Shown piece by piece: positions 30,393 to 62,507 of a stretch of 64,000 nucleotides of DNA. Numbering within the stretch: position 1 is the stretch's first letter; each line of letters opens with the position of its first letter. The stretch spans positions 1,719 through 65,718 of IMG/VR virus record IMGVR_UViG_3300020456_000177; one strand, given 5' to 3'. The notes beneath the pieces are model-generated. The model was not told the DNA's origin. It was given only the letters and a program-made list of their open reading frames with translations, and did no database searches. Made by a program: the position numbers and the translations under genes. This stretch comes from a virus. Lineage: Duplodnaviria; Caudoviricetes.

Positions 30393-30603
30393 TCGAAAGT
30401 AAGTCTTGTACTAATTCTTTCAGTTCTGTCAGTTCTTTTTGGAGAGAATCAACTTGAGTCTCTAAATTCTCATTATGTGTTTTCTGTTTCATCCTAATAG
30501 ATTTCTGACGGAGGTACTCTTTGTACCCCCGTTCATCAGTATTCACGATCGCATTGGTCTTAGGATCTCTATAGAGATTCTGAAACCCTTCTACTTTTAT
30601 CAT
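30388..30603 (-). CDS. Small coiled-coil protein
   Basis: KVEG..NLYRD..TNAIVNTD plus C-terminal heptads. Confidence 0.7.
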   Translation of the reverse strand: MIKVEGFQNLYRDPKTNAIVNTDERGYKEYLRQKSIRMKQKTHNENLETQVDSLQKELTELKELVQDLLSR

Positions 30604-39234: not shown

Positions 39235-39242
39235 TATTTATA
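39235..39242 (-). promoter_or_regulatory. Late promoter for g8
   Basis: Perfect TATAAATA overlapping the g7 stop. Confidence 0.7.
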
Positions 39243-42200: not shown

Positions 42201-45200
42201 TGCCAACCTGAGTCTCAAACTGTGAATCAGAGAGAATCTTAGTAGCATAGTATGGACCTGTTGGTTTGACTTCAAATGCAGTTCCATTTCCAACATAATT
42301 GTGTGGAATTGTGCAGACACCAACATTGACGAGGAAGGAGTTAGTTCCAGCAATACCGATAATAGGATACTTGTTGATATCTACTGCTTTTCTGCCAGAA
42401 CTTCCATCTGGGAAGATGGTTGTAGTAACACCAGCATGAGGAGCAGCACAACTAAATTCAATACCCTCAAGATGAACCATTCTGCCAACTCTGAAGTTGT
42501 GTGCAGATGTCAGTCCAACTGTAGAAAGACCTGTCAGGTTATCGTAGACAAAAGAACTGATATCAAAAGAGACTCCCTTATCGGATGGATATGTGAAGTT
42601 ATTAGTAAAAGGACCGTTAGCAGGACATGTGAACTGAATGTTGCGAAGTCGAATCTTATCACCAACTGTCAACTCATGGTTGGCAGCAGTTACAGTCATA
42701 ACACCAGTTACGTTGTCATAGTTGACGTTTGTAATCGAAACGTTAGGGCTAGTAGTAGAGACACCAGAAACTGCAGTCAGTTGTCCAAGAGTTACGGTTG
42801 GGATAACTTCTGCTGGTACAAGAGGTGCGAATCCAAGTCCAGTGGTAGATCCAAATGTGATGGGAACACCACCTCTAGGAAGTTGGTTCTTATTAATATC
42901 ACTTGGATCAATAATCTGTCCAGTATCAGATCTAACACCAGTAAATGTGATGCTGCTGATTCCAGAACTTTCAGTAATACCGAAGTTATTATCTGGGTTG
43001 TTTGGAGAAGATGGTGATTGGAAGATGCCATTGATGAATACAACACCATTACCACCTGTAGTTCCAATACCAGTAATATTTTGCTTGTCAGATGTCAGAA
43101 TAAAGTTAGACTTAGTTCCATCAAACTCATCTGCAATATCATCAAATACTGCGTTAGTATCATAATCTTTTCTGAGATATACTCTGCCTTGGAAAGAAGA
43201 TCTTGGCAGTGGCAGATTTCTATCATTGAGTCTGGTGATACCAGGTCCTCTTGGTGGTTCAGTGAAATGAATCGTGCTGTCAATAATGTTGAAAGCACCT
43301 CTGTAAAGAGTTACAGTATCAAACTGACCGTGAGCAACAGCTGAAGATCCAACATATCCTCTGGTAACTTCTGCAAGAGGCAGAGTGCTGAGTCCAGTGA
43401 TGCCTGAAGCATTGGTAGAACCAAGACCAACAGTGGTGATTCTCATGTATTCATCATTAATTCTCAGAATGTCATTTGCTCTAGCAGATGCAATTCCACT
43501 CAGTTGAATGATGCTTGTGCCAGCACCAACGGCATGCATTGTCTGCTCTTCAAAAGGTGTTCTGCTGATTGGACCTTGAGCAATGTTATCAATAGTCAGC
43601 AATGTCTTAGATGCTCTCTTCACCATAGAGAAGATGTGCTGGTTGCCAGATCCTACGGCAGTGAATGTGGCAGCAGTACCAGCAAGTGCATTGGCAGTTG
43701 AAATAGCAACTCTGAATCTACCCTGATTCAATCTGATTGCGTATACAGTTTCTGGCAATCTAGCAGTTGTACCAGCACCAGATTGATAGACGATACCAGT
43801 TCCAGCAACACCAGCAAGGTTAGATTCTGCTCTGTATTGCAGTTCCTCACCACTGTAGAAGAAGTGGTCCATGGTGAATGTACCAGTGGTGGTGCTGAGA
43901 ATACCAGTATTGCTTGGATCAAGAGTCTTAGCATAGATTGGAGATCCGTTATGCTTTGCTTCGAATGCAGTCTTGTCTCTCTGGTTCAATCCAAAGTAAA
44001 CACTGTGGAGTGCCTGCTGAGTGATTCCACCATAAGTTGTTCCACCAACACCATCATCATTACTGTTCTGATCAAGTTCGGTGTAGATGATTTCACTGAA
44101 TGTTTGTGCTTCAATATCACCACTGTAATCTGGATGGAACATGATGTCCACACCATCATTACTGTATTCTGCAGAGAATGTGCCAATACCATTTACATCA
44201 TTTACTGAAGCATAGGCAAAACTTGCAACATCAGTTTCTACTTGAGAAGTGGAGTCATTAGTAATGTAAACCTGATGAATTGCTTGAGTTTCACCAATAC
44301 TAACTCTTACAAGAGCTTTGGCAGATCCATCAACAGTGCTGCTGATTCCAGCAATCTTAGTCTTAGTGCCACCAGTAACAAGAGCAAAGTTAGATTCAAA
44401 TCTACCAGTTCTTTCAGCACCTGCAGGTGTTCCTTGTGGTGCAAATCTGTAAGTTCCAATTCCAGTAGCAGTTGTACCAATACCAATGATTTGAGACTTG
44501 ACAGTAACTTCATTGGCACCGTCATTATGATATACAAGATTCATGACACCAGATGTCAAGTCGGAACCAAATGTTCCGATAAATGGACCAGAAAGTCCAT
44601 TGAGTCCAACATTAGTATTGAATGCTGCAACTTCTGTCAGGTGAGTATCATCATCATTATGAGTCAGAACAACTTCAACATAATCTGTTCTATCATCAGT
44701 AGAATCATAGATTTCAAAACTACCGTAAATGGTGTCTGTAATTGCAGTTGTGAATCCTAAGATGGTTGATGTATTTGCAGCACCGATAGTTACTTGTTGA
44801 GAATAAAGATCAACAAATCCGATTGCCTGAGATCCGAAACCAGTGTTATTGGTAAAGATGGTTTGCAGTGCTTTGATTTCATAATCAACATCATCAGGAT
44901 CATTAGGACTGAATCTCAGAGCATATTGAACACCATCATAAGATCCATCATATTCACCAATGCTATCTCCAGCACCTGCTTTCTCAAGAGTATATGTGTT
45001 GTTGCTATTGGCAACCAAAATAACTTCACGTACATTCAGTTCATCATTCTCAGTGATGTTTCTAGTTTGAACCAAGAACTTGTTGGTTCTTCTACCAGAA
45101 GCAAACTGGAATACATCAGCATATGACAGGAACTCGTCTTGAGGACCACCCAAGAATTGTCCACTAATATCGTCAATAGGAATAACTCTGTTTGTCTTGT

Positions 45201-48200
45201 TCAGAATGTAGTCTGTAATTCTGATGTTTTCAAGATCAATAGACTTAGACGTTGTGGTTGTAGCATCAACGTCTCTGGCAAAGTCAAAGTCATTAATTGT
45301 ATCAACTCTCAGAGCACCTTCGTCAGCAATAACATCGAGAACCAGGAATGGTTCTTCTTGTGCAGTTGTTAGAGATGCGCCAACATTCTGTCCGTTCAGC
45401 AGAGACGCACTAGGTGTCAACTGCATGTCTTTGAAGTTCTTGAATCCACTTGGGTGAACATTCTCATTGACATAACTGATGACATCATCAAATGTCTTCT
45501 CACTCTGAATAGAATAAGACATTCTCTGATAATAATCATTATCACCCATGACTGAGTAATCTTCACTCAGTTTGCCAATATCATCTTTCCAACCACGGGT
45601 TACGTCAGAGAATGCATCGATCTCAAAACTACCAACATAACTTACTACGTTATCAATAGTACACTTAGAACCACTTGTGCCACCAGTAAGTGTATCTCCA
45701 GACTCGATTCTAGTAGATCCACTGATGTTCAACTTACCAGTTAGATCATTGAAACTGATCACAGTCAGATCAGTAGATCCATTACTAAAGTCAGAATTCA
45801 CATACAGCAACTCACCAGGTTCAAATCTTGCATTTTGCTTAGTAACTCTGAGAATAGGAAGATCCTCAGCAAGGATTACCTGAGCAAACAGACTTGGAGT
45901 TGTTTGAGCAACACCAACAGATGCACCTGCAGATACAAATGAATTCAAATTGTATGTCAGCAGGTTGGGGTTAGAAGTGCTGTCATAACTTGCAACTGTA
46001 AATTTCTGATATCCATAGTCTGCAGAGTTGTGACCTTCTCCTGTAGTGCCACCCATGCCGATACCTTCGACAAAGATGCTGTCTCCAACTTGGAATGGTG
46101 CAGTTGTAAATCCAAGAACAGGAGTTGCAATTTGCAGAGTAACGTTATTGTTCTGGGTAGACGCAACACTAACGATGGAAACACCATTGTCATTATTGAC
46201 GGTATATGCCTCATAAACAACATCGTCTTCCAAACCAACTGGATTCTTGTCAATTCTGACTCCAGGGACACCATCTACAGTTGGGCTAACAGAATTGCCA
46301 GCCAGTTCTGTAGAACCTTGGAAATCAGGTACAACTTCATTGGTTGATGGGTTGTATAGAATAACGTTAGGTGGTGTCTGGAAGTTTCTACCACCAGAGA
46401 GAATTGATACAGAGAACAGTGTTTGATAATCTCTTACATTCAGTTCATTTGGAATACTTGCCTCTGGAGAAAGTGTCTTATCAGATGGATAAGAGAAACC
46501 AGGTGTAAGCAGTCTTACTGTGTCTAACTTTCCAACTGTAGAAGAATTGAGTCTCAAGACCGTATCAGTTCCAAGTCCAGAAGTGATACTAGAAATGCTT
46601 GGGAATTTCTTATAATCTAATCCAGGGAAGATAAGATCAACTTTATCAATAGAACCATTAGCACTAGTGGACTTGGTGGTATATTTCAGCAAATCACACT
46701 CTGTGGAAGCATATGATACTCTTTCTGGAACATGTGTCAAATTAATGCCATATGTTGTGCTAGTAACACCAGAAATAGAATACTCACCAGAGAATACACT
46801 ATTATTATATTGAATTTCATTATATCCAGTAACTGTTTTATCAGCAGTGCTAATAAAACCAGATCTCTCTACATTGTAGTAAAGAATTTCGGGGAAGTTT
46901 GTAGAATAGGAAACTGTCAGTGCTGCACCTGCAGAACCGATAGTTCCAGAACTATTAATCAAGAAACTGTCAGTCTGACCAGTAGAAACTGTAGAATTGA
47001 AGAAATCTTGATCATAGTAGATCTTGAATTCAAATCCTGTCAAGGATGTGTCTTCTAAATTGAATACAACATCATCATTCTTATAGACTGATAATGGTGG
47101 GTTAATTCTAGCAATAGACTGTGATGTACCACCAACAGAAGTGAGACTGACGATGTTTGGTGGGAATACTTGAATATCTCTTTCCGTTTCACCAAGACTG
47201 AAATTATCTTTGTCAATAGTGTAGATATAGAAAGTTCCGGTTGTCAGTCCACCAATAACTTCAGTAGATTCATAGAATACCTTGTCTCCAGTAGAATATT
47301 CATGATCTGTTAATGTAATGACATTTGTAGATGTATTGACACCAGCAGAACTGATTGCAACTGGATTAACAAGAAGATTGTCTTTTGCAATCTTGAGAAC
47401 GATAGAAGAACCTGCTCCGACACCTCTAGTGAGGTTTGACTTCAGATCAAGTTTGATAACATCAGCATTTTCAAGATTATGATCTTCACCAGTGGTTACA
47501 GTTGCAGTTACCTTCTTAACATCTGCTGTAATCTGCTGATACTGTGACTGAAGGACATAATCATAGAAATCGGTGTTTGTAACATCACGGAAGTAAACTT
47601 TATCACCATTCAGGACAGTTGCGATACCAATTGTATCTTTAGATGTCTTGATGGCAAATACATCTGCTGGCATGTCAAATCTGTTGCCAGTTGGAGATGT
47701 TGAGATTCCAATTGTGCTAGTACCAGATCCAACATAAGCCAGATGCTGATTAGTTACAAATGGATGATTTGGAAGGAAAATATTTTGAGTTTGGATAGTT
47801 CTGGTAGTTGTTACACCATTGAACTGATAAGATCTAGCAGTTGTAAAACCAGCAGTGATACCAATACCAATTGACTCAAATGGGTTGAAATAAATTACAT
47901 CCTGATCTTTTGATTCAAAATATGGTGTTTCAACATTTACCGTAAATGCTTGTGGCAGATAACTGACAGATTCTGTTGCTGTATGAGCAACTCCACCGTT
48001 TGCAGTCTCTGATGGGTATCTCTTAACTCTAATAATGCCATCAGCATCAAATACATTCAAAACACCAAGTGTTTCGGTGCTGACTTTGATGGAATTGCCG
48101 ATAGAAACAGGAATATTAGCAACACTAATATCAGTGACCATTCCACTGACACCAGTTGTACCAAAACCAACAACTAGGTTTGAAATTGGATTAATAGTAT

Positions 48201-51200
48201 TGGCAACTTGTGATCCTGTAAGATCTTTAACAAAAGTAGAAAGACCTGTGATTTGAACTACATCTTGATCGATAAGATCAAAATTAACATCAGATACTAA
48301 CTCTACCTCTTTGCTGTTCTTCCACTTAACAACAACATTTTCATAAATTTCGTCTGTGGAGGCAATACTGACAACTGACTTGCCAACAATACTAGAAACT
48401 TCAGCCGCAAGTCCTGTTCCTTCACCAGGTGCAAATTCGATGAAGTTAACAACATCACCAACACCATACTTACCATTACCAGTAGCAGCAACACTTACAG
48501 AATCAAAAGATCCTCTGGAAATGCTCTCAACAATTGCATCTTGAACAAATACCTTATATGGTTCAATAACAAAGTCATAAGATGCTGCAGAATCACCAAT
48601 CTTCTGTGGGAAGGTGTTTCTAACTAAATCAGAGTTATTAAAATCAAATGCCTGACTAATCTTAACAGCAGGATCAAGGTTCTCTGCAATAGGAGCACAT
48701 CTATAGTGTGGTCCAACAAAGAATGGGAATTCTGGATTACCAATTGTGTCTATAGTAGCATAATATGCATAAACACCATTTGGAAACTCATTGGTAATTG
48801 CAAATCTACCATTATATTCATCAAGATCACCACTACCATCATAAACAAAGTCATCTACAAAGAATCCAGGTGGGAAGACTGTGGTGCTTGGTCTGTTGGT
48901 GATATTAGTGATAACAGAAGTATATCCTGTACCAACTCTCTTAATACCACTCTGAATGTTCTCTGGATCAACATATCCGTAAGATCCATAGATTGGAACA
49001 CCATCATACGACCATCCAATGATTGGGGAGTGTGCTGAACCACCATCACCAAATTCTACTCTGAAAGTAGATCCATATCCAATAGCAGCATACTCAAGAC
49101 CATTCCTTGGAGTTGGGTTTACAATCTCACCACCATTATCATTAATCTTCGCAAACTTATTGACCTGCAGTTTCCTCACGAAACCATTCAGAATGGCACC
49201 AGAACCGACTGAATTGACTTTGATACTAGTTGTATTGATATCATAGTTCTGTCCCTTTCCTAGGACCACTACGTCGGTTACAACACCAACATTGTTGATC
49301 AGTGCTCTCAGTCTTGCACCGGTTCCTGTAGTGGCAATACCAACAGGACTAGAGGTGACTTCTAACTCTGGTGGTGAAGTATATCCACTACCACCATTTT
49401 GAACGAATGCATTTTCAATTCTACCATTAATAATGATAGGACTTACAGCAGCACCAGATCCACTAGTGACTGTAAGTTTGGGTACTTTCTCAAAATTAAG
49501 TGTTTCTGATCCATAATCAGAACCTTCTTCATACAGATATGCATCAACAATAGCACCACGGACAACAGGAGTAGCAGTGAACTGTCCAGCGGTCTGTTGA
49601 GTTGTTACAGCATTGATAGTAACTTCAATGGCAGGATACTTAAAGATATGACTACCAACACCAACAGAGTCTAATGCAACATGCTTACGTCTAATGTAGT
49701 CTGTGAGATTAGTTCCTCCAACACCAGCATTGGCAAGTCTAAATGACTTATTATCTACGGCAAGAACTTTATATCGAGTTGTTGTGCTAAGTCCAACTAC
49801 TCCAGTATCGAAGAACTCATACTCTACAAAATCACCATCAGTAAAGTTATGGTTATTAAAGACAATAGTATCATTTGCAGTGTTTATACCTGTTGACTTA
49901 ACAATGAGTTTCCTATTAGAATAACTCTGTCCAGGGTTAAGGATATTAATTCGATCTAGCTTAAGCTTCTTATTAGTAGTTCTGAACTTCATTAGTCCAG
50001 CATTGTTTTCAGTAGTAATACCAATAGTATTGATACCACTCTGTGCTTCTGCTTTAGTATTGAACAGTTGAACTGTTCTACTATTAATGAATCTAGAGAA
50101 ATAGATTTCACCTGATTGAAGAGTCAGGTTTTGAATAGCATCATTAGCAGAGTCTGTAGAAATACCAAGAGCAGGTGTTCCTAAGTCGTTGTATACAATA
50201 GAATCTCCTGTTTGGAAATTATGTACTGTATCAAAAGTAATTGTATTGTCAGCAGCAGATACACCACCACCGTTAGCAAGACTATTAGCATTAAAGAATA
50301 CTTCTCTAAATTCAGATGCTAAAGTAGCAGATGCTGTTGCACCCTCACCATTACCACCAGTAATATTGATAGAAACAATTTCTTCAATGTCAAAGCTTAC
50401 TGGATCAACTTCAACATCAACAAAAGATCCACTAACAACTGGTTGTACTAATGCAGTTGTTCCTGTAGATACTTCTGGATCACTTACTACTACAGAAGGT
50501 GCATTTGCAGCATCATAGTTAGATCCACCAGTAAAGATACCAACGTTGGTAATAGGACCATAGTAAACAGAATCATCAGACTTATAGTTTACAATTTCAA
50601 CACCATTGATCAACATACCAGTTGGACCTGGTTCTGTTGTGGTATCATTACCACTCATCAAGTTTTGAGAAAGTGGGAACTTCTTCAGAAGCTTTTGTGG
50701 TTGAATCTCATCAACTCTTTGCTCAGAAAGAATAAATTCATGTGGTCCATTATTTGAAGGAGTAAATCTAACAAAAGATTGTGCATCCAAGAAAGATTTG
50801 GAAAGTGCTAGTTTTACTCTGTTTGGATTTGCACTATCAACATTTACATAATACGATCCAGTATGAAGACCAATAATTGGAGTTACTTCTGGATCATAGA
50901 ATACCTCATCACCAGTTACAAAAGGAACATTTGCAGAAAATGCAAGGGTATCGTAATTTAAGGTATTGGAATCATATCCAAGGATTGCACCACTAGTTGT
51001 AGATGCCGTTGCAATATTGACTTTTGTCGTTACTGGTCTAATTTCATAAGATGGTAGTGAGTTTGATGCAACATAACCAAAATCATTGTTTTCGTTATAA
51101 GCATTCAGAATATCTGAAGCAAGTGCGTCATTACCAGCAGATAAAGTAGAACCAACACTTGTTGCTTTGCTAATTCTCTTTCTAATGTCATACTTAAGAT

Positions 51201-52785
51201 CTGTATTAATGCCAGTGAGATTTCCATTTACAGTAATGGCATTAGTGTTTAGATTGATCGTTTGAACTTCTAAATTAGTCGCATCAATCTCTTGAGAAGA
51301 TCTTCTTACAATATCAACACGGTCTCCTACCTTCAGACTGGATCTATCAATCGAAGATTGTACATTAAAGGTAGATCCATTGAAACTGGATACAAAATAC
51401 CTTGAAGAGCTGTTATAGACCCAAGAGTTAAAGAATACTTTTTTGTAACTGATATCTTCATCACTATTGTCAATAACTTCTCCAAGATTTTTTACAGAAA
51501 TGATAGAATTCTCTTCTGAAGAGAAAACATTATCATCTGTCTTCAATCCTTTCAATACACCGGTAAGGGTGAAGATTACTGGTTTGGTGAGATCATTATT
51601 TTCATATGCATATACCTGAAGATCTTGAATAATCTCAGATCTTGGATTAATGGCACTAGTAATTCCGGTACAACCCAAAAATTGGGTAACTGTCTTGTCA
51701 GTATATGTGACAGTGCTCATTCCGACTTGGAATGTTCCAGATTGCGGGAATCCGATAGTGGAATCAACAGTAATTACAGAATCGGTAGTTTCTGTGGTTC
51801 CAATAGTGAAACTACTGCCAGGAATGATAAAAGTGCCTTCTACAAGACTCTCATCACCAAATCCAGTGAATAGGGAAATCTTATAGTAGGTTTGTCTGCC
51901 AATATCATCTGTGGTGCCTCTAGTAAAGATTTCTACTTCCGAGATGGGTCCACTAGCAGCACCAATACCGATATTGGTTTGTGCATCTTGGAAAAGAGTA
52001 GCACCGGAGATCAGTTTTGGATTTCCGCTGATTAGTTTGGCAACAACTACCTTTCTGCGAATAAATTCGGCAGAAGAAGGTCTCGAAAGGAATTGTTCCA
52101 GATCAATGACCTTGGAATCTACACCAAACAGAACTTTGAGCAGAATCTTGATCGATTCTTCCGTGCCTTTGCTCTGATATAAACTTCTAGACTCTTTAAT
52201 GAAATTATTGACACTCAGATCAGGAGCAAATGCTACATTCTCTAATCCGGGTGTATAAAGTCCTTTTAATTTGTTATAAAACTCTTTCAGGAACAGAGCA
52301 CTGAGATTTTGTACTGCAGTGCCGTTAGAATGGTCAGCCGCAACACTTGTGGAGAATACTAACTCCTCTGGTTGGTTTGGAGCATGATAAGATGTAATAC
52401 CGGAGAATCCACGGACACATCCCGTGAAAGAATTCGTTGTTACTCCAGTATATGTGATAATTTCATCATTTAAACGGAAAAGTCCGTATTCTTCAGGGAA
52501 TCCTTTCGTATTAGTTACAAAAATCTCCGTATCTGTGCTATTAACAGCAGAAGATACCGTAGACATCCCGACAATGATCTCGGGAGTCAATTTATCAAGT
52601 TTTAGATACTTATCTAAGTTCTCAGCAATATCTACAGGACCACCAGCATACTCTTGAGACGTATAGTACGATCTCAGAAAATCCACTACAAGTGGATTCT
52701 CATCTTTGATAAACTCAGGCAGTTGACTGTCTACAACTTGCTGAATTTTAACTCTAGATTCGAATACGGAATTCGTGTTTATCAT
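39238..52785 (-). CDS. g7: Giant baseplate wedge initiator (gp7-like, 4515 aa)
   Basis: SQLPEFI, YQSKGTEESIKILLKVLFG, HSPIIGWSYDG.PIYG, DNDYYQ..SY, VHPSG; lies between g6 and g8. Confidence 0.8.
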   Translation of the reverse strand: MINTNSVFESRVKIQQVVDSQLPEFIKDENPLVVDFLRSYYTSQEYAGGPVDIAENLDKYLKLDKLTPEIIVGMSTVSSAVNSTDTEIFVTNTKGFPEEYGLFRLNDEIITYTGVTTNSFTGCVRGFSGITSYHAPNQPEELVFSTSVAADHSNGTAVQNLSALFLKEFYNKLKGLYTPGLENVAFAPDLSVNNFIKESRSLYQSKGTEESIKILLKVLFGVDSKVIDLEQFLSRPSSAEFIRRKVVVAKLISGNPKLISGATLFQDAQTNIGIGAASGPISEVEIFTRGTTDDIGRQTYYKISLFTGFGDESLVEGTFIIPGSSFTIGTTETTDSVITVDSTIGFPQSGTFQVGMSTVTYTDKTVTQFLGCTGITSAINPRSEIIQDLQVYAYENNDLTKPVIFTLTGVLKGLKTDDNVFSSEENSIISVKNLGEVIDNSDEDISYKKVFFNSWVYNSSSRYFVSSFNGSTFNVQSSIDRSSLKVGDRVDIVRRSSQEIDATNLEVQTINLNTNAITVNGNLTGINTDLKYDIRKRISKATSVGSTLSAGNDALASDILNAYNENNDFGYVASNSLPSYEIRPVTTKVNIATASTTSGAILGYDSNTLNYDTLAFSANVPFVTGDEVFYDPEVTPIIGLHTGSYYVNVDSANPNRVKLALSKSFLDAQSFVRFTPSNNGPHEFILSEQRVDEIQPQKLLKKFPLSQNLMSGNDTTTEPGPTGMLINGVEIVNYKSDDSVYYGPITNVGIFTGGSNYDAANAPSVVVSDPEVSTGTTALVQPVVSGSFVDVEVDPVSFDIEEIVSINITGGNGEGATASATLASEFREVFFNANSLANGGGVSAADNTITFDTVHNFQTGDSIVYNDLGTPALGISTDSANDAIQNLTLQSGEIYFSRFINSRTVQLFNTKAEAQSGINTIGITTENNAGLMKFRTTNKKLKLDRINILNPGQSYSNRKLIVKSTGINTANDTIVFNNHNFTDGDFVEYEFFDTGVVGLSTTTRYKVLAVDNKSFRLANAGVGGTNLTDYIRRKHVALDSVGVGSHIFKYPAIEVTINAVTTQQTAGQFTATPVVRGAIVDAYLYEEGSDYGSETLNFEKVPKLTVTSGSGAAVSPIIINGRIENAFVQNGGSGYTSPPELEVTSSPVGIATTGTGARLRALINNVGVVTDVVVLGKGQNYDINTTSIKVNSVGSGAILNGFVRKLQVNKFAKINDNGGEIVNPTPRNGLEYAAIGYGSTFRVEFGDGGSAHSPIIGWSYDGVPIYGSYGYVDPENIQSGIKRVGTGYTSVITNITNRPSTTVFPPGFFVDDFVYDGSGDLDEYNGRFAITNEFPNGVYAYYATIDTIGNPEFPFFVGPHYRCAPIAENLDPAVKISQAFDFNNSDLVRNTFPQKIGDSAASYDFVIEPYKVFVQDAIVESISRGSFDSVSVAATGNGKYGVGDVVNFIEFAPGEGTGLAAEVSSIVGKSVVSIASTDEIYENVVVKWKNSKEVELVSDVNFDLIDQDVVQITGLSTFVKDLTGSQVANTINPISNLVVGFGTTGVSGMVTDISVANIPVSIGNSIKVSTETLGVLNVFDADGIIRVKRYPSETANGGVAHTATESVSYLPQAFTVNVETPYFESKDQDVIYFNPFESIGIGITAGFTTARSYQFNGVTTTRTIQTQNIFLPNHPFVTNQHLAYVGSGTSTIGISTSPTGNRFDMPADVFAIKTSKDTIGIATVLNGDKVYFRDVTNTDFYDYVLQSQYQQITADVKKVTATVTTGEDHNLENADVIKLDLKSNLTRGVGAGSSIVLKIAKDNLLVNPVAISSAGVNTSTNVITLTDHEYSTGDKVFYESTEVIGGLTTGTFYIYTIDKDNFSLGETERDIQVFPPNIVSLTSVGGTSQSIARINPPLSVYKNDDVVFNLEDTSLTGFEFKIYYDQDFFNSTVSTGQTDSFLINSSGTIGSAGAALTVSYSTNFPEILYYNVERSGFISTADKTVTGYNEIQYNNSVFSGEYSISGVTSTTYGINLTHVPERVSYASTECDLLKYTTKSTSANGSIDKVDLIFPGLDYKKFPSISSITSGLGTDTVLRLNSSTVGKLDTVRLLTPGFSYPSDKTLSPEASIPNELNVRDYQTLFSVSILSGGRNFQTPPNVILYNPSTNEVVPDFQGSTELAGNSVSPTVDGVPGVRIDKNPVGLEDDVVYEAYTVNNDNGVSIVSVASTQNNNVTLQIATPVLGFTTAPFQVGDSIFVEGIGMGGTTGEGHNSADYGYQKFTVASYDSTSNPNLLTYNLNSFVSAGASVGVAQTTPSLFAQVILAEDLPILRVTKQNARFEPGELLYVNSDFSNGSTDLTVISFNDLTGKLNISGSTRIESGDTLTGGTSGSKCTIDNVVSYVGSFEIDAFSDVTRGWKDDIGKLSEDYSVMGDNDYYQRMSYSIQSEKTFDDVISYVNENVHPSGFKNFKDMQLTPSASLLNGQNVGASLTTAQEEPFLVLDVIADEGALRVDTINDFDFARDVDATTTTSKSIDLENIRITDYILNKTNRVIPIDDISGQFLGGPQDEFLSYADVFQFASGRRTNKFLVQTRNITENDELNVREVILVANSNNTYTLEKAGAGDSIGEYDGSYDGVQYALRFSPNDPDDVDYEIKALQTIFTNNTGFGSQAIGFVDLYSQQVTIGAANTSTILGFTTAITDTIYGSFEIYDSTDDRTDYVEVVLTHNDDDTHLTEVAAFNTNVGLNGLSGPFIGTFGSDLTSGVMNLVYHNDGANEVTVKSQIIGIGTTATGIGTYRFAPQGTPAGAERTGRFESNFALVTGGTKTKIAGISSTVDGSAKALVRVSIGETQAIHQVYITNDSTSQVETDVASFAYASVNDVNGIGTFSAEYSNDGVDIMFHPDYSGDIEAQTFSEIIYTELDQNSNDDGVGGTTYGGITQQALHSVYFGLNQRDKTAFEAKHNGSPIYAKTLDPSNTGILSTTTGTFTMDHFFYSGEELQYRAESNLAGVAGTGIVYQSGAGTTARLPETVYAIRLNQGRFRVAISTANALAGTAATFTAVGSGNQHIFSMVKRASKTLLTIDNIAQGPISRTPFEEQTMHAVGAGTSIIQLSGIASARANDILRINDEYMRITTVGLGSTNASGITGLSTLPLAEVTRGYVGSSAVAHGQFDTVTLYRGAFNIIDSTIHFTEPPRGPGITRLNDRNLPLPRSSFQGRVYLRKDYDTNAVFDDIADEFDGTKSNFILTSDKQNITGIGTTGGNGVVFINGIFQSPSSPNNPDNNFGITESSGISSITFTGVRSDTGQIIDPSDINKNQLPRGGVPITFGSTTGLGFAPLVPAEVIPTVTLGQLTAVSGVSTTSPNVSITNVNYDNVTGVMTVTAANHELTVGDKIRLRNIQFTCPANGPFTNNFTYPSDKGVSFDISSFVYDNLTGLSTVGLTSAHNFRVGRMVHLEGIEFSCAAPHAGVTTTIFPDGSSGRKAVDINKYPIIGIAGTNSFLVNVGVCTIPHNYVGNGTAFEVKPTGPYYATKILSDSQFETQVGIVTFAHTYNTGGTVAKWNNATFGSGYSTVTAPAIAVTEAGHTGAEALVSATVGAGGTLIFTINQAGSGYVDPTINIAPPSYDNLTIEGVSRLSVGATTEVGLGMSVTVGVLGINTHYNNIPIVDFDYTDTIGIATVSAVGHGFTSGDVVRLKNLQFSPAAPVGSGGTIFPHSDISVDYTVLQYVDENRFTVNIGIADTQGVGYAYSAGTGGVAISGVGATMFEVKQFDIPKRGYGFLKGDVFRITGITTDPTAGDNYQDFTLTIVDAFQDNFASWQFGELDYIDSVKAFQDGINARFPLAYNDQLISFETDPTDPDSVLIDIKYLLLVFVNGILQVPGESYEFFGGTSILFSEAPAPEDNVDIFFYRGTGGDDSFLKDVYETLKPGDEVRLKRTPLIEKNDAAYDFSNFSQEYKRTIVGIKSSSEIETTLYRGEGVNTVEPKPLSWTKQKVDKFLGGTWIPKARDSIEAQVYPTAKIISNVVSTGTTQIFVDNNELFLGATGNTNELGAIMISGFSTAGIGSTTTVPTEVITGILPGGVRGYQGIVTGIQTSFARLEEFTGFDVSKTVYRKQLGLTDGTNNDPQGLFIRPDGERLYVLDGNTLRVTAWNLSTAFELDTATIDNTNHIGIGTQLQSVFDLDFSTDGTRMYVIGQGAAAPFVFQVNQFNLTTPWELTSVLPAGVSTNTTISNQGQLHRSLQVVNSGQQMITLSPSQACFRNYDFGTNFDITTISFGSSIAVTDDAAPSDFNFSTNGEKMLVIGADTQRFLEYNLTSGWDISTLGIGSTSSYVLGAGVSHSSTIKPDGERVFLVSNAGVGSQFHFSVPPAGLGLIFQLDLTDVPGGLAERQELVRGYRMLVYDTAVGTGVTTIVGSAISTGIGTDNVIGISSNNLDNIYEVYYSQFDGTNGIATCFVDPATNIVGIATTGDYHNPAGKMTWGRITGYDRGTPAVNILPDGNHFDVGMSTYPTFQRRNSGLRDTGALKKSL

Positions 52786-58311: not shown

Positions 58312-60045
58312 CTATAATTTTGTTTGTTTTTCAAGACTGTGGGTGACAATCCCCACAGTGGGAGTTGTATTTTCAACCTGCGATGCATTAGTCATTGTTG
58401 TTGGTATTGGCCAGTAGTAACTGCCACCAGGTCCACCCCAATTTACATTAGAACCCGATAATGGATTTATATTAGTAGAAACAACCTGAGTGGGATTACC
58501 ACTTAGTTGTGATCTTGGAACATATTGGTACTCACCATAAATTCCATGTCCCTTATCCATATCTTTGGGAAACTTGAATAATACCACTTGATTCTCATGT
58601 GATACACCAGTCTGATCTGTACGATCGGTTTCGGACTGTAGGTAAATGAATTCATCACCTACTATCATTGAAATTTGACCGTCTGTAGAAGTTGCTATCC
58701 TATCATTTCCATTAACGACCGTTAGAATATTCTCATTAAGTAATTGTCCTGTTGTTGCATGGAATTTGACAATGGTGCATCTTGACTCATTATGACCACA
58801 AACAACATAGACATGATCACCATCCCATACTACAGAAGAAGGATTACCAGAATAGAAATTAAAGTCGGCAGAAGTTACATAGAACCCACGTCCAATGTTA
58901 GTTAAAGCGGCATCCCACCACCAGAAGTATTGTCTACTTCTAGGTAAAGGAGTTGTGGTATCATTACCGGTCGTAGCTGCAATTGACATGATTGGATAAG
59001 GATCGGTCTCATCACCATTAGTGAATACAAATCCAGGAAAATACCATGGAAATGGAAATGCGGTATAAGGTCCTGCTCCATTCTGCATTGCAATCCCAAA
59101 ACCACCGGGACCAATGGTTTCTCCATTAGTCGATCGACGATAGATTGCAACGATGTTATAACATGGTGCATTGGGTGATGAACACTTATGTCCCGCTCCA
59201 TTATCGGTATGGACATATACCCAATCACCTAACTTGCAAATCTTGATGCCATAATTATGTCCATTGGCATTACCGGTGCCACCACTACTACCCATGAACC
59301 TGGAACTGGTAGTAACTCCGGTCTGTGCCGATACGGTAGAACATGCAGTCATGAACTGTTGAGTAGGATAACCAAATGAATATGCATTCGCTCCTTCTAT
59401 CTGTAAAAGAGTTTCATTGGTATCAATAAAAACGGCATCGGTAATCATTCCACCATGGAAACTTTGTCCCCCACCAAAACCATTAGTCATGCCACCATAC
59501 AGAGACATTGACTCAGTGCTATCAAATCGATAAACACCATCCTGATCTACACTCTGTACCCAGGTATTATGATTGCTATTATTACCATTAGGAATGAGTG
59601 CATCACCTAACTGGTAAATGTTATCATTACTATCTACGAGCACCGTTTCGGTGGTTTTATCGAGATACGAGGTTGTGCCGGTCGGATCAGCCGTCCTCTG
59701 CCATACAACTTCCCCGTCAGGAGTAATCCTAAACAACGTGCAGAGCCGAAAACTACTACCCTGAGGTAGACTATTAACCGCACTGACTAGGTTGCCATCT
59801 GACAGTAAATTCAAAGGTGTCCCTTTTCTCTGAGAGGTATAGACTCTATCTGCTCCTGCCGTTCCGGCACCGAACAGCATCCGCCAGCCTGCTCCACCAG
59901 AAACAAATAATAAATCCCAATTACCATTTGCCTTACTGTATAACTCATCAATCTCTAACCATACACCATCCTTCTTGATATATGGTGATATAACCTTTCT
60001 CCAAGATCCTTCGTCCTTCACATAGAGATCACAACCTTCAGACAT
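58312..60045 (-). CDS. Putative fibre / receptor-binding protein with a beta-propeller-like body
   Basis: N-terminal YVK.EG.W / YIKKDGVW / YSKANGNW repeats; DGEVVWQR, VDSNDNIY, DGDHVYV blade-like motifs. Confidence 0.55.
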   Translation of the reverse strand: MSEGCDLYVKDEGSWRKVISPYIKKDGVWLEIDELYSKANGNWDLLFVSGGAGWRMLFGAGTAGADRVYTSQRKGTPLNLLSDGNLVSAVNSLPQGSSFRLCTLFRITPDGEVVWQRTADPTGTTSYLDKTTETVLVDSNDNIYQLGDALIPNGNNSNHNTWVQSVDQDGVYRFDSTESMSLYGGMTNGFGGGQSFHGGMITDAVFIDTNETLLQIEGANAYSFGYPTQQFMTACSTVSAQTGVTTSSRFMGSSGGTGNANGHNYGIKICKLGDWVYVHTDNGAGHKCSSPNAPCYNIVAIYRRSTNGETIGPGGFGIAMQNGAGPYTAFPFPWYFPGFVFTNGDETDPYPIMSIAATTGNDTTTPLPRSRQYFWWWDAALTNIGRGFYVTSADFNFYSGNPSSVVWDGDHVYVVCGHNESRCTIVKFHATTGQLLNENILTVVNGNDRIATSTDGQISMIVGDEFIYLQSETDRTDQTGVSHENQVVLFKFPKDMDKGHGIYGEYQYVPRSQLSGNPTQVVSTNINPLSGSNVNWGGPGGSYYWPIPTTMTNASQVENTTPTVGIVTHSLEKQTKL

Positions 60046-60047
60046 TA

Positions 60048-60269
60048 TTATTCCTCACAGTAATACCAGAGATCTCCATCCTTTCCTACATTATTACTCG
60101 ATGGTGTCGAAGCTGTACTGACGGTCACATTGGACTCTGGTGCGTTCGGAGTGAACTTTGCGTCCACTTCTTCCTTCGAATACACATCAGATATCTTACC
60201 TGTTACCCACAGATTACCTTCGATGGTCTTGAATAGTTGACCAGACGTATGATCCTTTTCTAGTTTCAT
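60048..60269 (-). CDS. Small fibre-type module protein
   Basis: Start MKLEKD at 60269 (ATGA overlap); VYSKEEVD and TPS...GKDGDLWY fibre motifs. Confidence 0.55.
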   Translation of the reverse strand: MKLEKDHTSGQLFKTIEGNLWVTGKISDVYSKEEVDAKFTPNAPESNVTVSTASTPSSNNVGKDGDLWYYCEE

Positions 60270-60439
60270 GCCTTCCTCAGAATTAAACAACCGTCTTCTT
60301 CATCTATAATCCACTCTAACTTATCTCCTTCTTCCCATCCCATATCCATACACATCCAATCGGGGATCGTAATGATAGGCTCACCAGTTACCGGGTCGAT
60401 CTCTACGGTCGTTGTCTCATGTCCGAAATTTTTATCCAT
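60266..60439 (-). CDS. AbrB/MazE/SpoVT-family DNA-binding protein (57 aa)
   Basis: Hand-translated MDKNFGHETTTVEIDPVTGEPIITIPDWMCMDMGWEEGDKLEWIIDEEDGCLILRKA; ITIP...GW.EGD.LEW....G.LIL.K. Confidence 0.7.
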   Translation of the reverse strand: MDKNFGHETTTVEIDPVTGEPIITIPDWMCMDMGWEEGDKLEWIIDEEDGCLILRKA

Positions 60440-60645
60440 ACCCAATAAACCCTATACCGTTTTTATATATGGGAAAAAAATTTTGAAATCGACCGGAATC
60501 GTTATAACGAACTCGATCTGGGTCGTTTATAGCTTAGAGGGACCCTTTAAATTATAAACCCCCATCGCAGGCACCGAAGGCATCAACGAAGGGGGGATAT
60601 AACTGCCAGCACACTAACACTGACTGCCGAAGGATTCACTCCCTC

Positions 60646-60674
60646 ATTATAACATAAGGACTGCCAGTTGTCAA
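60646..60674 (-). promoter_or_regulatory. Perfect sigma70 promoter
   Basis: TTGACA-N17-TATAAT with TGn extension. Confidence 0.85.
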
Positions 60675-60683
60675 CACATTACC

Positions 60684-60704
60684 TGTGGAAAAACCTGTGG
60701 AAAA
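60684..60704 (-). promoter_or_regulatory. Two tandem DnaA-box-like 9-mers
   Basis: TGTGGAAAA (reverse complement of TTTTCCACA) at 60684-60692 and 60696-60704. Confidence 0.65.
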
Positions 60705-60715
60705 CTAACACATAG

Positions 60716-60859
60716 TCATGCACAGTACCTGTCAGCCAACTGCTCATAATGTCCTACTTGATCATAGTCATCATCTGCATAGTTTGTGTCATAAACCTCC
60801 CCCATATCATAGAGTTCGCATATACTCTCATAGTCGTCATAAGTATAATCCTCACCCAT
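60716..60859 (-). CDS. Very acidic Tyr-rich micro-protein (47 aa)
   Basis: Hand-translated MGEDYTYDDYESICELYDMGEVYDTNYADDDYDQVGHYEQLADRYCA; upstream AGGGG SD, TGGTATAAT and GATAAATA. Confidence 0.55.
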   Translation of the reverse strand: MGEDYTYDDYESICELYDMGEVYDTNYADDDYDQVGHYEQLADRYCA

Positions 60860-60953
60860 GATTGAGACCCCTGACTGACACTGTGGTATTATACCATATT
60901 TATCACTGACACTGCCAATTGTAAGGGTTCTGTGATATTTTGAGTCCTGGGGG

Positions 60954-60982
60954 TTGACAACACTCTCTCTTCATGATATGCT
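60954..60982 (+). promoter_or_regulatory. Plus-strand sigma70-type promoter with no downstream + gene
   Basis: TTGACA-N17-TATGCT with TGn extension. Confidence 0.6.
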
Positions 60983-61138
60983 CACTTAACTTACATCAAC
61001 ACCGCACATTAAAGTATATTTAATTCACCCTTTTTTAACTGTGCAAAATAACACCTAAACCTACTATCTATAAGTGATTTTCAAGAGCACAAATTAGGAG
61101 ACATCACTGTCTACAACTGCGATGCGCAAAAATAACAA

Positions 61139-61174
61139 AGTTTTCCACAGATATGCCAAAACCTGTGGAAAACT
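61139..61174. promoter_or_regulatory. Inverted pair of DnaA-box-like sites
   Basis: AGTTTTCCACAG-N12-CTGTGGAAAACT, a perfect 12-bp inverted repeat. Confidence 0.65.
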
Positions 61175-61226
61175 CTATGTTTAGTTTATGTTAATTTTAT
61201 GCGAAAAAACCCTCGTTTATATACCC

Positions 61227-61376
61227 TTACCACTCAGACAGTACATGATACTTAGGGGAAGGAATATCCTCATCCCAGATAATATCCTCTGCATCCAACT
61301 TATCCCACAAGTGTTCAGGTATCTCATCCATGATGGAATCAACGAAGTCTTGTGATGTTGTCGTTGTAATAGTCAT
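61227..61376 (-). CDS. Small acidic hypothetical protein (49 aa)
   Basis: Hand-translated MTITTTTSQDFVDSIMDEIPEHLWDKLDAEDIIWDEDIPSPKYHVLSEW; SD GGAGG. Confidence 0.55.
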   Translation of the reverse strand: MTITTTTSQDFVDSIMDEIPEHLWDKLDAEDIIWDEDIPSPKYHVLSEW

Positions 61377-61380
61377 CAAC

Positions 61381-61659
61381 CTAAACCTCCGAAAGTGATA
61401 CTAACTGAGTAGACAGAACGTTATACTCCTCATCAATTATAGCACACAAATGCTTTACTTCCTTCTCACCAGATCCATACACTTTAACCATGAAAGTATC
61501 AGTCCAAGCTGACACTAACTCTACCGTTTCATATTTATCAAGAAAGGCAGAAATATCATCATACTTTGTTGATGCAAACTCTACCTCTAATTCAGCAACA
61601 TAACCAGAGTGGAAATGCAACCCTTTAGACAAACTTTCGACAGTGAGAGAACTTTTCAT
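61381..61659 (-). CDS. Hypothetical protein
   Basis: 92-aa ORF in the early-type cluster. Confidence 0.55.
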   Translation of the reverse strand: MKSSLTVESLSKGLHFHSGYVAELEVEFASTKYDDISAFLDKYETVELVSAWTDTFMVKVYGSGEKEVKHLCAIIDEEYNVLSTQLVSLSEV

Positions 61660-61689
61660 TATTTAGGGAAAATAGGGTGATTTCAGTGT

Positions 61690-61884
61690 TTAGTTAGTAG
61701 TGGTAAGATCAGGAATAAAGAGAAACTCATATTCACCATCTTCTGGATCTTTACCATCAACAATCCATTCATTCATGACGGCAAAAGCATCATCAGGATT
61801 GTTCAACTTTACATGTGCAGTAACAAGATCAAACAGTGATTCAGACATATTATCGACGCAGGATTGACGTTGCTTGTTGTTCAT
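61690..61884 (-). CDS. Hypothetical protein
   Basis: 64-aa acidic ORF with an ATGA overlap with the HicA-like gene. Confidence 0.6.
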   Translation of the reverse strand: MNNKQRQSCVDNMSESLFDLVTAHVKLNNPDDAFAVMNEWIVDGKDPEDGEYEFLFIPDLTTTN

Positions 61885-62072
61885 AACTGTGTGATTGAGT
61901 TGATGTACTTTTGGGTGAGAAATTGGATGCCTGGAGATACATCCTTGTGTTGTTTGGGAACAACTAGATTATGGCACACATTTGGGTGTTTGTAAACATG
62001 GTGCTTCCCCCCAGTTCTTACTAATTCAATGCCATGAGATGATAACATCTTGATGAATGTTTTGTATTTCAT
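61881..62072 (-). CDS. hicA: HicA (YcfA)-family toxin-like protein
   Basis: 63 aa, IKML..HG.ELVRTGGKHHVYKHP....LVVP..HKDVSPG follows the HicA pattern including the catalytic His position. Confidence 0.7.
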   Translation of the reverse strand: MKYKTFIKMLSSHGIELVRTGGKHHVYKHPNVCHNLVVPKQHKDVSPGIQFLTQKYINSITQL

Positions 62073-62077
62073 GGAAT

Positions 62078-62101
62078 AAAAAAGAGGGGGTTAATCCCCT
62101 C
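62078..62101 (-). terminator. Rho-independent terminator just upstream of the hicA-like ATG
   Basis: Minus strand GAGGGG-ATTAAC-CCCCTC-TTTTTT. Confidence 0.7.
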
Positions 62102-62450
62102 ATGAAAAGATGAAACCATTTTCGAAATCTTCGACGTTGAAGACTTTACCAGTGATGGAAGATTGTGCGATGCACTTTCTCACAAACCACTTGTAATTCT
62201 TCTGAAACACACCTTCACCCGAGATGCAGAAATAATCGCACAAAGCATTTAGTCTGCTCTTGGTAGTTACTGTCTGCCAACCACCATCAAAAATGGTCAT
62301 GTCGTTGTCAGAAATCTCGGCAATCTTGTTACCGTGAAGACGTACCACAGAAACACCAGTCTCGGGGTCAAAGTGAACAGAAGTGTTAGCAGATTGCCAG
62401 TTAATGTTGGACTGGACTGCTTGACACATTTGCTGTTCGATCTTGCGCAT
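62100..62450 (-). CDS. Hypothetical early-type protein
   Basis: Likely start MRKIEQQM at 62450; LHGNKIA, DGGWQTVTTKSRLNAL. Confidence 0.7.
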   Translation of the reverse strand: MRKIEQQMCQAVQSNINWQSANTSVHFDPETGVSVVRLHGNKIAEISDNDMTIFDGGWQTVTTKSRLNALCDYFCISGEGVFQKNYKWFVRKCIAQSSITGKVFNVEDFENGFIFS

Positions 62451-62507
62451 AATGAAGAAGAGAATGGGTTGGGTTGGTGGGGTTGGTTTCCCTCCCCCGA
62501 TGTCCTT

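Follow-up and report, generated by a model that had tools for sequence, protein, structure and literature searches.

Here we describe a locus in a 64,000-nucleotide (nt) stretch of viral DNA (positions 1,719–65,718 of IMG/VR record IMGVR_UViG_3300020456_000177; hereafter, the window) in which two pairs of perfect DnaA boxes border a control region of 445 bp, with all four boxes lying within 490 bp. The source record comprises 65,718 nt and is estimated to be 34% complete. Its large terminase is 82% identical to those of the Synechococcus myoviruses Sf-CH5, S-T4, and S-SKS1, and by this measure the window belongs to a T4-like cyanomyovirus. From high to low coordinates, the locus is composed as follows:

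61227–61379, minus strand: upstream gene for a 50-amino-acid (aa) protein, its stop 54 nt before the head-to-head box pair
61178–61135, minus strand: predicted 18-bp hairpin followed by a U-rich run, its arms coinciding with the head-to-head boxes
61141–61172, both strands: head-to-head pair of exact boxes, CACA ends inward, 14-nt gap
61040–61048, minus strand: degenerate fifth box, TTTTGCACA, fitting the relaxed consensus TTWTNCACA and abutting the AT-rich block
60998–61039, unstranded: conserved AT-rich block (AT 0.70–0.72), directly downstream of the plus-strand promoter
60954–60982, plus strand: predicted geneless, backward-facing promoter, TTGACA-17-TATGCT (10 of 12 positions matching; TG present)
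60884–60896, unstranded: palindromic extended –10 element TGGTATAATACCA, reading TGgTATAAT on the minus strand (for the 47-aa gene) and TGgTATTAT on the plus strand
60716–60859, minus strand: gene for a strongly acidic 47-aa protein, the sole gene between the two box pairs
60682–60704, minus strand: tandem "double DnaA box" of two TTTTCCACAGG units, with 9-mers at 60684 and 60696, 3 bp apart
60646–60674, minus strand: predicted strong sigma-70-type early promoter, TTGACA-17-TATAAT (12 of 12 positions matching; TG before the –10)
60446–60641, minus strand: untranslated leader of about 195 nt, with a conserved 20-mer at 60514–60533 and two TATATAAAA-like motifs
60266–60445, minus strand: gene for a 59-aa MazE/AbrB-like small protein, the first gene downstream

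An earlier note on this DNA, made by reading the letters alone, had pointed to four perfect TTTTCCACA sites within 490 bp. An exact search returned just these four, at 60684 and 60696 on the minus strand, 61141 on the plus strand, and 61164 on the minus strand, and the genome-wide count proposed in that note revealed no further copy in the whole 65,718-nt record. The inverted orientation of the pair at 61141 and 61164 was likewise borne out, as was the position of the tandem pair, which lies 11 nt past the stop of the 47-aa gene and ends 9 nt before the –35 hexamer of the perfect promoter. All four sites extend to TTTTCCACAG, as described, since each continues with a G, and three of the four extend further to TTTTCCACAGG (GG). 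Shuffled versions of the window held 1.34 boxes on average, with four or more anywhere in 5 of 100 shuffles; four boxes anywhere in 64 kb are not rare. Of 3000 first-order Markov simulations, 42 placed at least two boxes in a 500-nt interval, and three or more never fell that close together. The clustering of the boxes, not their number, is the real signal.

To place the motif, the phage 23-mer spanning the tandem pair was scanned against one genome per bacterial species. It was found in at least 120 bacterial contigs, which among the matches listed came from cyanobacteria (Microcoleus, Tychonema, Pseudanabaena, and Synechococcus), Sericytochromatia, Saccharibacteria, Acidobacteriota, and some Clostridia, and it sits there inside arrays of 5–14 boxes (about 200 bp in hosts). 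Flanking open reading frames were scanned at eight of these loci: dnaN and/or dnaA adjoins the array in six, and neither gene does in the other two. A Synechococcus metagenome-assembled genome (MAG; L159, G001) carries eight boxes upstream of dnaN and 59 boxes in 3.1 Mb, versus 18 occurrences of the reversed word. Within the family of this MAG, a tandem in the same 12-bp register occurs in 51 of 61 genomes (reversed-word control: none), with G almost always the first base of its spacer. Box flanks follow equal preferences in hosts and phages—A at –2, G or T at –1, and GG(T) after the box—in a comparison biased by the choice of loci through the 23-mer. Given the 23-mer in dnaN/dnaA-linked arrays, the 51 of 61 genomes against none, and the shared flanks, the phage sites match host-type DnaA boxes down to their flanks, and the identification of TTTTCCACA as the DnaA box variant of cyanobacterial oriC is upheld by the host arrays. 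The same MAG holds a second cluster that stands apart from its dnaN-linked array (contig C2, 13339–13401; four same-strand boxes at spacings of 21, 21, and 12 nt) and could be a host regulatory or datA/DARS-like site.

Conservation at the same locus, which the earlier note had named as a check, was assessed in the IMG/VR relatives L039, L055, and L070. These are about 82% identical to the window and nearly identical to one another, making this effectively a two-lineage comparison. All boxes in the aligned parts (four of four) are invariant in the three relatives. The hexamers of both promoters are equally unchanged (12 of 12 bases each), over spacers that differ at 11 of 17 positions in the minus-strand promoter and 8 of 17 in the plus-strand promoter. 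In the hairpin, 4 of the 12 loop bases and the flanks of the boxes have changed, and the arms have not. One base differs in the palindromic extended –10, and about 40 of the 42 bases of the AT-rich block are the same, while the next 85 nt largely differ (read by eye). The fifth box, separated from the inverted pair by some 85 poorly conserved nt, is not kept in this group. Substitutions in the 47-aa gene relative to L039 fall mostly at third codon positions (first codons read by eye), and the leader is better conserved than the flanking genes. The tandem pair is also invariant in four metagenome contigs of the same lineage (L254, L255, L276, and L351), which have four boxes per kb. The boxes thus appear to be under purifying selection in the phage.

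RNA-library data took the form of contigs, whose ends do not equate to transcript ends and whose uncovered parts carry no evidence. Two variants among them have changes in the loop or in nearby bases and none in the arms. One contig ends at 60641, near the predicted transcript start, a weak hint at most. In run X17, the sole contig on a 1.5-kb stretch (405 nt, depth 26, 60901–61278) spans only the geneless part and the inverted pair. As to the distribution of the locus, at least half of its sampled words were present in 14 DNA runs, mostly marine or seawater metagenomes, with two wetland metagenomes and one coded organism, and any part of it in 20 runs from 16 studies. Named phages gave no blastn match to the 1-kb locus and no tblastn match to the 92-aa neighbour protein. 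Searches of viral contigs with a leader 25-mer, an AT-block 22-mer (exact), and the 59-aa protein returned the same three or four relatives only.

The geometry of the pairs is informative in light of what is known from E. coli, where DnaA binds in vivo almost only box pairs 2–3 bp apart (15 of 16 regions in chromatin immunoprecipitation sequencing, mostly regulatory) and can activate, repress, or block RNA polymerase, the last as a roadblock terminator (PMC11317965). The 3-bp spacing of the phage tandem pair fits this in-vivo unit (PMC11317965). Box pairs in viral contigs were counted among the matches listed, and totals are not comparable between orientations. Counted in this way, 176 distinct head-to-head pairs have gaps of 3–5 nt (72 pairs) or 14–16 nt (92), with only 12 in between; the commonest class is 14 nt (60 of 176), the gap found in the window. 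Tandem gaps measure 2–3 or 12–13 nt, and tail-to-tail gaps 4 or 10 nt (L359–L576, L005–L090). The 66 gap sequences of the 14-nt class include 60 distinct ones. Gap lengths quantised by one helical turn, combined with a free gap sequence, point to a pair of proteins bound on the same face of the DNA and not to an RNA loop.

Conserved where it is present, the box cluster is nonetheless optional. It is absent from all five of the nearest complete genomes, Sf-CH5, S-T4, S-SKS1, Bellamy, and P-SSM2, which were picked by terminase similarity only and contain 2, 3, 5, 0, and 4 scattered boxes, respectively (reversed word: 2, 4, 3, 3, and 1). Among named records, 143 match a tandem-like sequence, 105 of them under a Synechococcus, Cyanophage, or Prochlorococcus phage label. 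Since at least 439 records labelled Synechococcus or Cyanophage match the terminase, roughly a quarter of records at most have the tandem. Among the matches listed for the leader 20-mer, which mark the downstream cassette, boxes occur within 300 nt in 4 of the 99 contigs with enough upstream sequence, and two or more boxes anywhere in 11 of 115. The cultured phages S-PM2, S-CAM1, and Syn1 (L211, L212, and L213) possess a single cluster each. A dispersed DnaA regulon on the phage was considered and rejected: 17 of their 18 other boxes lie inside open reading frames.

Close relatives show how the element varies. In sister lineage A (L262, L346, L309, and L305), both promoters, the AT-rich block including its conserved ends, a homologue of the acidic gene, and the leader are kept, and there is no tandem pair. 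The plus-strand promoter is retained in three of the four loci (in L262, the –10 reads TATTCC). A perfect TTTTCCACAG stands where the window has its weak fifth box, and the head-to-head boxes are 5 nt apart, with a degenerate third box at a distance of 2 nt. In lineage B (L306, L353, and L315), the head-to-head pair with its 14-nt gap alone is kept. An RNA-library contig of run X16 (depth 2.4), from a very close relative, has three bases in place of the 36 nt at 60678–60713 that include the tandem pair, with the gene stop and the –35 intact; this single low-depth contig may be a natural box-less allele. The head-to-head pair thus appears to be the persistent part in this group, the tandem pair a lineage-specific addition, and the boxes as a whole an optional element. 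A GGGAGTG..CGG motif lies 41–52 nt past the tandem pair in the window (60632–60643, minus strand), S-PM2, S-CAM1, and Syn1. In the window the GGGAGTG site is non-coding, its plus-strand frame having stops and a 1-nt indel relative to L039. The idea that the tandem always precedes a promoter with a transcript start at GGGAGTG was rejected, the motif forming the last codons of a convergent gene in the three cultured phages. From this arrangement, the tandem pair and some 70 nt seem to have moved, or been passed down, together, and they sit inverted relative to the flanking genes.

The earlier note had left a choice between a DnaA-dependent origin, a DnaA sink, and a DnaA-sensing switch. Its premise of host-type boxes stands; an oriC-like origin opened by DnaA is disfavoured. 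In host oriCs, CTACTACTACTA comes after a box pair on the CACA side, whereas none of the phage boxes is flanked by such DnaA-trios; what follows the tandem pair is a –35 hexamer. Nor did we find a dense array of the oriC kind in the 1 kb around the boxes, which contains 13 sites with up to two mismatches (4.1 per kb window-wide) and only five with up to one, a roughly twofold enrichment of weak boxes. The optional presence of the cluster, missing from all five nearest complete genomes and rare alongside the downstream cassette, is a further point against such an origin. Cumulative skew, which the earlier note had suggested as a check, gave no support either: GC skew is monotonic across the window without a turn at the module. 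In all three complete box-bearing genomes the global skew extremes lie at the record ends and not at the module. Small local reversals near the module do occur and are frequent in these genomes (7, 11, and 19 per genome), and the skew test is weak for T4-like phages.

The boxes are very probably docking sites for host DnaA. Further than this we go only tentatively: the reading we favour, which could well prove wrong, is that they constitute accessory sites through which host DnaA may gate early transcription at the borders of the control region, as opposed to a core origin. Its observed basis is the motif identity with oriC boxes, the purifying selection, the phased geometry, the positions of the promoters, and the optional presence; the direction and purpose of DnaA control we infer from these. 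DnaA on the tandem pair would raise or lower firing of the promoter at 60674–60646, which would drive the conserved leader, the MazE/AbrB-like gene, and the genes downstream, and could also halt read-through from the 47-aa gene. At the other border, the arms of the head-to-head pair also form a predicted intrinsic terminator hairpin in this lineage. The pair does have the stable stem-loop and U-rich run of such a terminator, with a free energy of –23.9 kcal/mol on the minus strand (z –6.2; –17.5 kcal/mol on the plus strand) and UUAUUUUUG after the minus-strand hairpin. Occupied by DnaA, it would be a barrier to transcription from both sides, including that of the geneless plus-strand transcript. 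Taken together, these effects would tie early phage transcription to the level or state of host DnaA.

Several observations weigh against gating of early transcription. Apart from metagenome variants, the conservation is seen in what amount to two sub-lineages, between which the spacing of the tandem pair and the –35 varies by 2 nt, and DNA may be present in the RNA-library contigs. Moreover, in S-PM2, S-CAM1, and Syn1 the tandem pair follows the stop of a convergent gene with no recognisable promoter adjoining it, so that a promoter-proximal role is not general. Finally, a T4-type origin, too, would show a geneless promoter with an AT-rich block behind it. An accessory origin of this type, akin to oriF or oriG, would have the plus-strand promoter transcribe the AT-rich block to yield an R-loop primer, with DnaA helping to open, stall, or time the process—a possibility that we regard as rather doubtful. 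In its favour, the promoter at 60954–60982 has no gene and has hexamers that look selected, being conserved over a diverged spacer, and the conserved AT-rich block begins about 10–15 nt past its predicted start. A perfect box abuts this block on the CACA side in sister lineage A, the side on which the unwinding elements of host oriCs lie, and there is one locus per genome. The premise that T4 initiates through R-loops and recombination agrees with the literature, in which minimal T4 origins comprise a promoter and an AT-rich unwinding element and are individually dispensable (PMC3016281); such dispensability would fit the optional presence of the boxes. Yet the block at 60998–61039 is merely at about the 95th percentile of AT content, not extreme, and is conserved in sequence, which mere unwinding would not need. 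No box has trios beside it, the skew is monotonic in the window and the three complete box-bearing genomes, and the five nearest complete genomes lack the cluster. T4-like phages, in addition, encode their own replisome, so helicase loading by DnaA would be unneeded.

The boxes might instead manipulate the host DnaA pool, either by a DARS-like conversion of ADP-DnaA back to ATP-DnaA or by titration into a sink whose size increases with copy number, and would thereby alter host initiation or DnaA-controlled host genes; we consider this unlikely. In E. coli, DARS elements function in ADP release from DnaA, and DARS1 consists of a box, 5 bp, an opposed box, 3 bp, and a third box, with CACA ends facing (PMC6868365). 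This order recurs in S-PM2 and in the viral locus L022 (4-bp and 3-bp gaps), and sister lineage A comes near it with a 5-bp head-to-head pair and a degenerate third box 2 bp off. The window has no such three adjacent boxes: its 14-nt gap gives a span of 32 bp versus the 19–26 bp modelled for DARS (PMC6868365), and its tandem pair is 445 bp from the head-to-head pair. Perfect head-to-head pairs occur in at least 120 viral contigs and in only 4 of 61 host-family genomes, which makes them a phage speciality and not a copied oriC. Every site is a perfect and, by its motif, high-affinity box, and with about 59 host boxes per 3.1 Mb, some tens of phage copies would equal the host total; early in infection, however, four sites per genome would make a small sink, a sink needs no tight association with promoters and gene ends, and a lytic phage would have no clear benefit. 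Quite unlikely, but of most consequence, would be a DARS-like device in which box pairs, multiplied with every genome copy, reset or capture the host initiator, forcing or blocking a replication-permissive state, and read that state at early promoters, much as animal DNA viruses force S phase; if real, it would be the first phage device editing the nucleotide state of DnaA. It is more improbable that the sites merely resemble DnaA boxes and are read by another protein, for instance a phage regulator such as the MazE/AbrB-like product. A small gene of DNA-binding type does lie directly downstream, and dimeric regulators favour inverted repeats of fixed spacing, but host oriC arrays contain the identical 9-mer, flanks, and 23-mer tandem, the MazE-like gene and leader occur in at least 115 contigs with two or more boxes in just the 11 already mentioned among those listed, and modules of the S-PM2 type have boxes beside different genes. 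Least probable of all, to the point of being highly improbable, is that DnaA has no function here, in which case the inverted pair would simply be an intrinsic terminator and the tandem would be a neutral relic of origin DNA captured from the host. The stable minus-strand hairpin of 18 pairs with its U-rich run fits this, as do the loss of the tandem pair in sister lineage A and in the X16 contig and the T-rich tail that follows 37 of 103 pairs in the 14–16-nt class, compared with 24% at random positions. However, among the matches listed, such a tail is missing from 64% of the 14–16-nt class and 82% of the 3–5-nt class, and the S-PM2-type pair lies between promoters, not behind a gene. Terminator arms would co-vary, whereas here the same 10-mer as in the tandem and the host box is seen in every lineage, invariant amid diverged flanks. 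A terminator does not explain why its arms are DnaA boxes or why the gaps are quantised one helical turn apart.

Returning to the remainder of the locus, the leader carries its own conserved signal. At least 115 metagenome contigs, which differ greatly in composition and include GC-rich ones, contain its 20-mer as an exact match. In most contigs displayed it lies about 60–90 nt before a short gene whose product starts MxKN, which in the window is the MazE/AbrB-like protein; at least one contig, L246, has a tRNA-like sequence around it instead. The 20-mer is flanked by the two TATATAAAA-like motifs and an A/T run. A structured RNA was considered for the leader and rejected: its fold does not reach significance (z –1.4), nor does the arm facing the 20-mer co-vary (by eye, metagenome contigs). 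With no Rfam family and no co-varying partner arm, the 20-mer is more likely a promoter or operator acting at the DNA level than an RNA fold. The downstream 59-aa protein matches PHROG 661 (E 9.8e-15) and Pfam PF04014 (E 3.5e-4, below the curated cut-off).

The other features named in the earlier note had mixed outcomes. The geneless plus-strand promoter at 60954, aimed toward the inverted pair, was found with its 10 of 12 matching positions. The AT-rich tracts are present and moderate, at 0.70–0.72 for 61000–61080 and 0.75 for 61160–61219, against a window mean of 0.60 and 95th and 99th percentiles of 0.70 and 0.75 (40-nt windows). Of the heptamer repeats, two of the three exact AGTGTCAGT copies do lie in the locus, but window-wide the motif is not above chance (28 matches with up to one mismatch, 27.2 expected). 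The palindromic extended –10 could fire on both strands, and across the 3 kb examined, promoter-like matches number no more than chance would give (7 versus 8.5 expected). The 47-aa protein, with 15 acidic residues, one Arg, and many Tyr, has no PHROG or Pfam family; its composition resembles that of small DNA-mimic proteins. Against Rfam, 59500–62500 yielded nothing at E up to 1 other than a chance miRNA match on the hairpin, and a tRNA search found none. Farther afield, 0.7 kb upstream of the module, a 63-aa gene (61881–62072, minus strand) encodes a HicA-like toxin domain (Pfam PF07927, E 1.1e-8; PHROG 353 "toxin"), with no obvious HicB partner among the neighbours scanned, and two very long minus-strand open reading frames span 4515 aa (39238–52785) and 2340 aa (30600–37622).

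T4-like cyanophages account for a large share of deaths among marine Synechococcus, and T4 itself serves as the standard example of replication that begins with no initiator from the host; to our knowledge, neither the replication starts nor the early control circuits of T4-like cyanophages have been mapped. Against this background, a helically phased element of perfect boxes, conserved yet optional, points to a direct link between a lytic phage and the master protein of the host cell cycle. If DnaA does gate early transcription or an R-loop origin, the success of infection would be tied to host growth state, light, and the diel cell cycle. The cultured phages S-PM2, Syn1, and S-CAM1, together with natural box-less variants, make this link testable. 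In the literature on DnaA boxes and cyanophages, cyanophage replication origins, and phage DnaA boxes, covered mostly by titles and the openings of abstracts, no such module is described. Mentions of the 9-mer itself are, among the matches listed, mostly primer sequences, and the available part of PMC8477408 contains no description of DnaA boxes on a cyanophage.

Among known systems, the double-DnaA-box promoters of E. coli (purH, polA, mioC, and others; Stringer, Fitzgerald and Wade 2024, PMC11317965) share the tandem consensus boxes 2–3 bp apart near a promoter. The phage element, known here from its sequence, differs in sitting on a lytic T4-like genome, in using the cyanobacterial box variant, and in having a second, head-to-head element 445 bp off. 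DARS1 and DARS2 of E. coli (Sugiyama et al. 2019, PMC6868365) likewise combine (near-)perfect head-to-head boxes, CACA inward, with a tandem neighbour at 3 bp, an order that S-PM2, L022, and sister lineage A reproduce with gaps of 4–5 bp and 2–3 bp. The window departs from it in its gap of 14 nt instead of 5 and in its separate, distant tandem pair. The T4 origins oriF (uvsY) and oriG (gene 34) resemble the locus in that a promoter without an evident requirement for a gene product precedes an AT-rich element, and in being dispensable and variable among relatives (Kreuzer and Brister 2010, PMC3016281). They have been defined by a persistent R-loop and by autonomous plasmid replication in infected cells, and they use MotA-dependent middle promoters and no host initiator (PMC3016281), whereas the phage here has a sigma-70-type promoter bracketed by DnaA boxes. 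Cyanobacterial oriC has the same 9-mer, flanks, and 23-mer tandem in 12-bp register. Host origins, however, pack 5–14 boxes into about 200 bp, with tail-to-tail junctions and a box pair followed by CTA-type trios, while in the phage four or five boxes are spread over 490 bp, two of them head-to-head, and trios are absent. The origins of phage P1 and of plasmids carry DnaA boxes as well. Phage lambda relies on host DnaA for transcriptional activation of its origin (PMC8477408). These systems, too, put host DnaA sites near a promoter or origin to phage or plasmid use, but they are temperate phages or plasmids that depend on the host replisome, whereas T4-like cyanophages bring their own.

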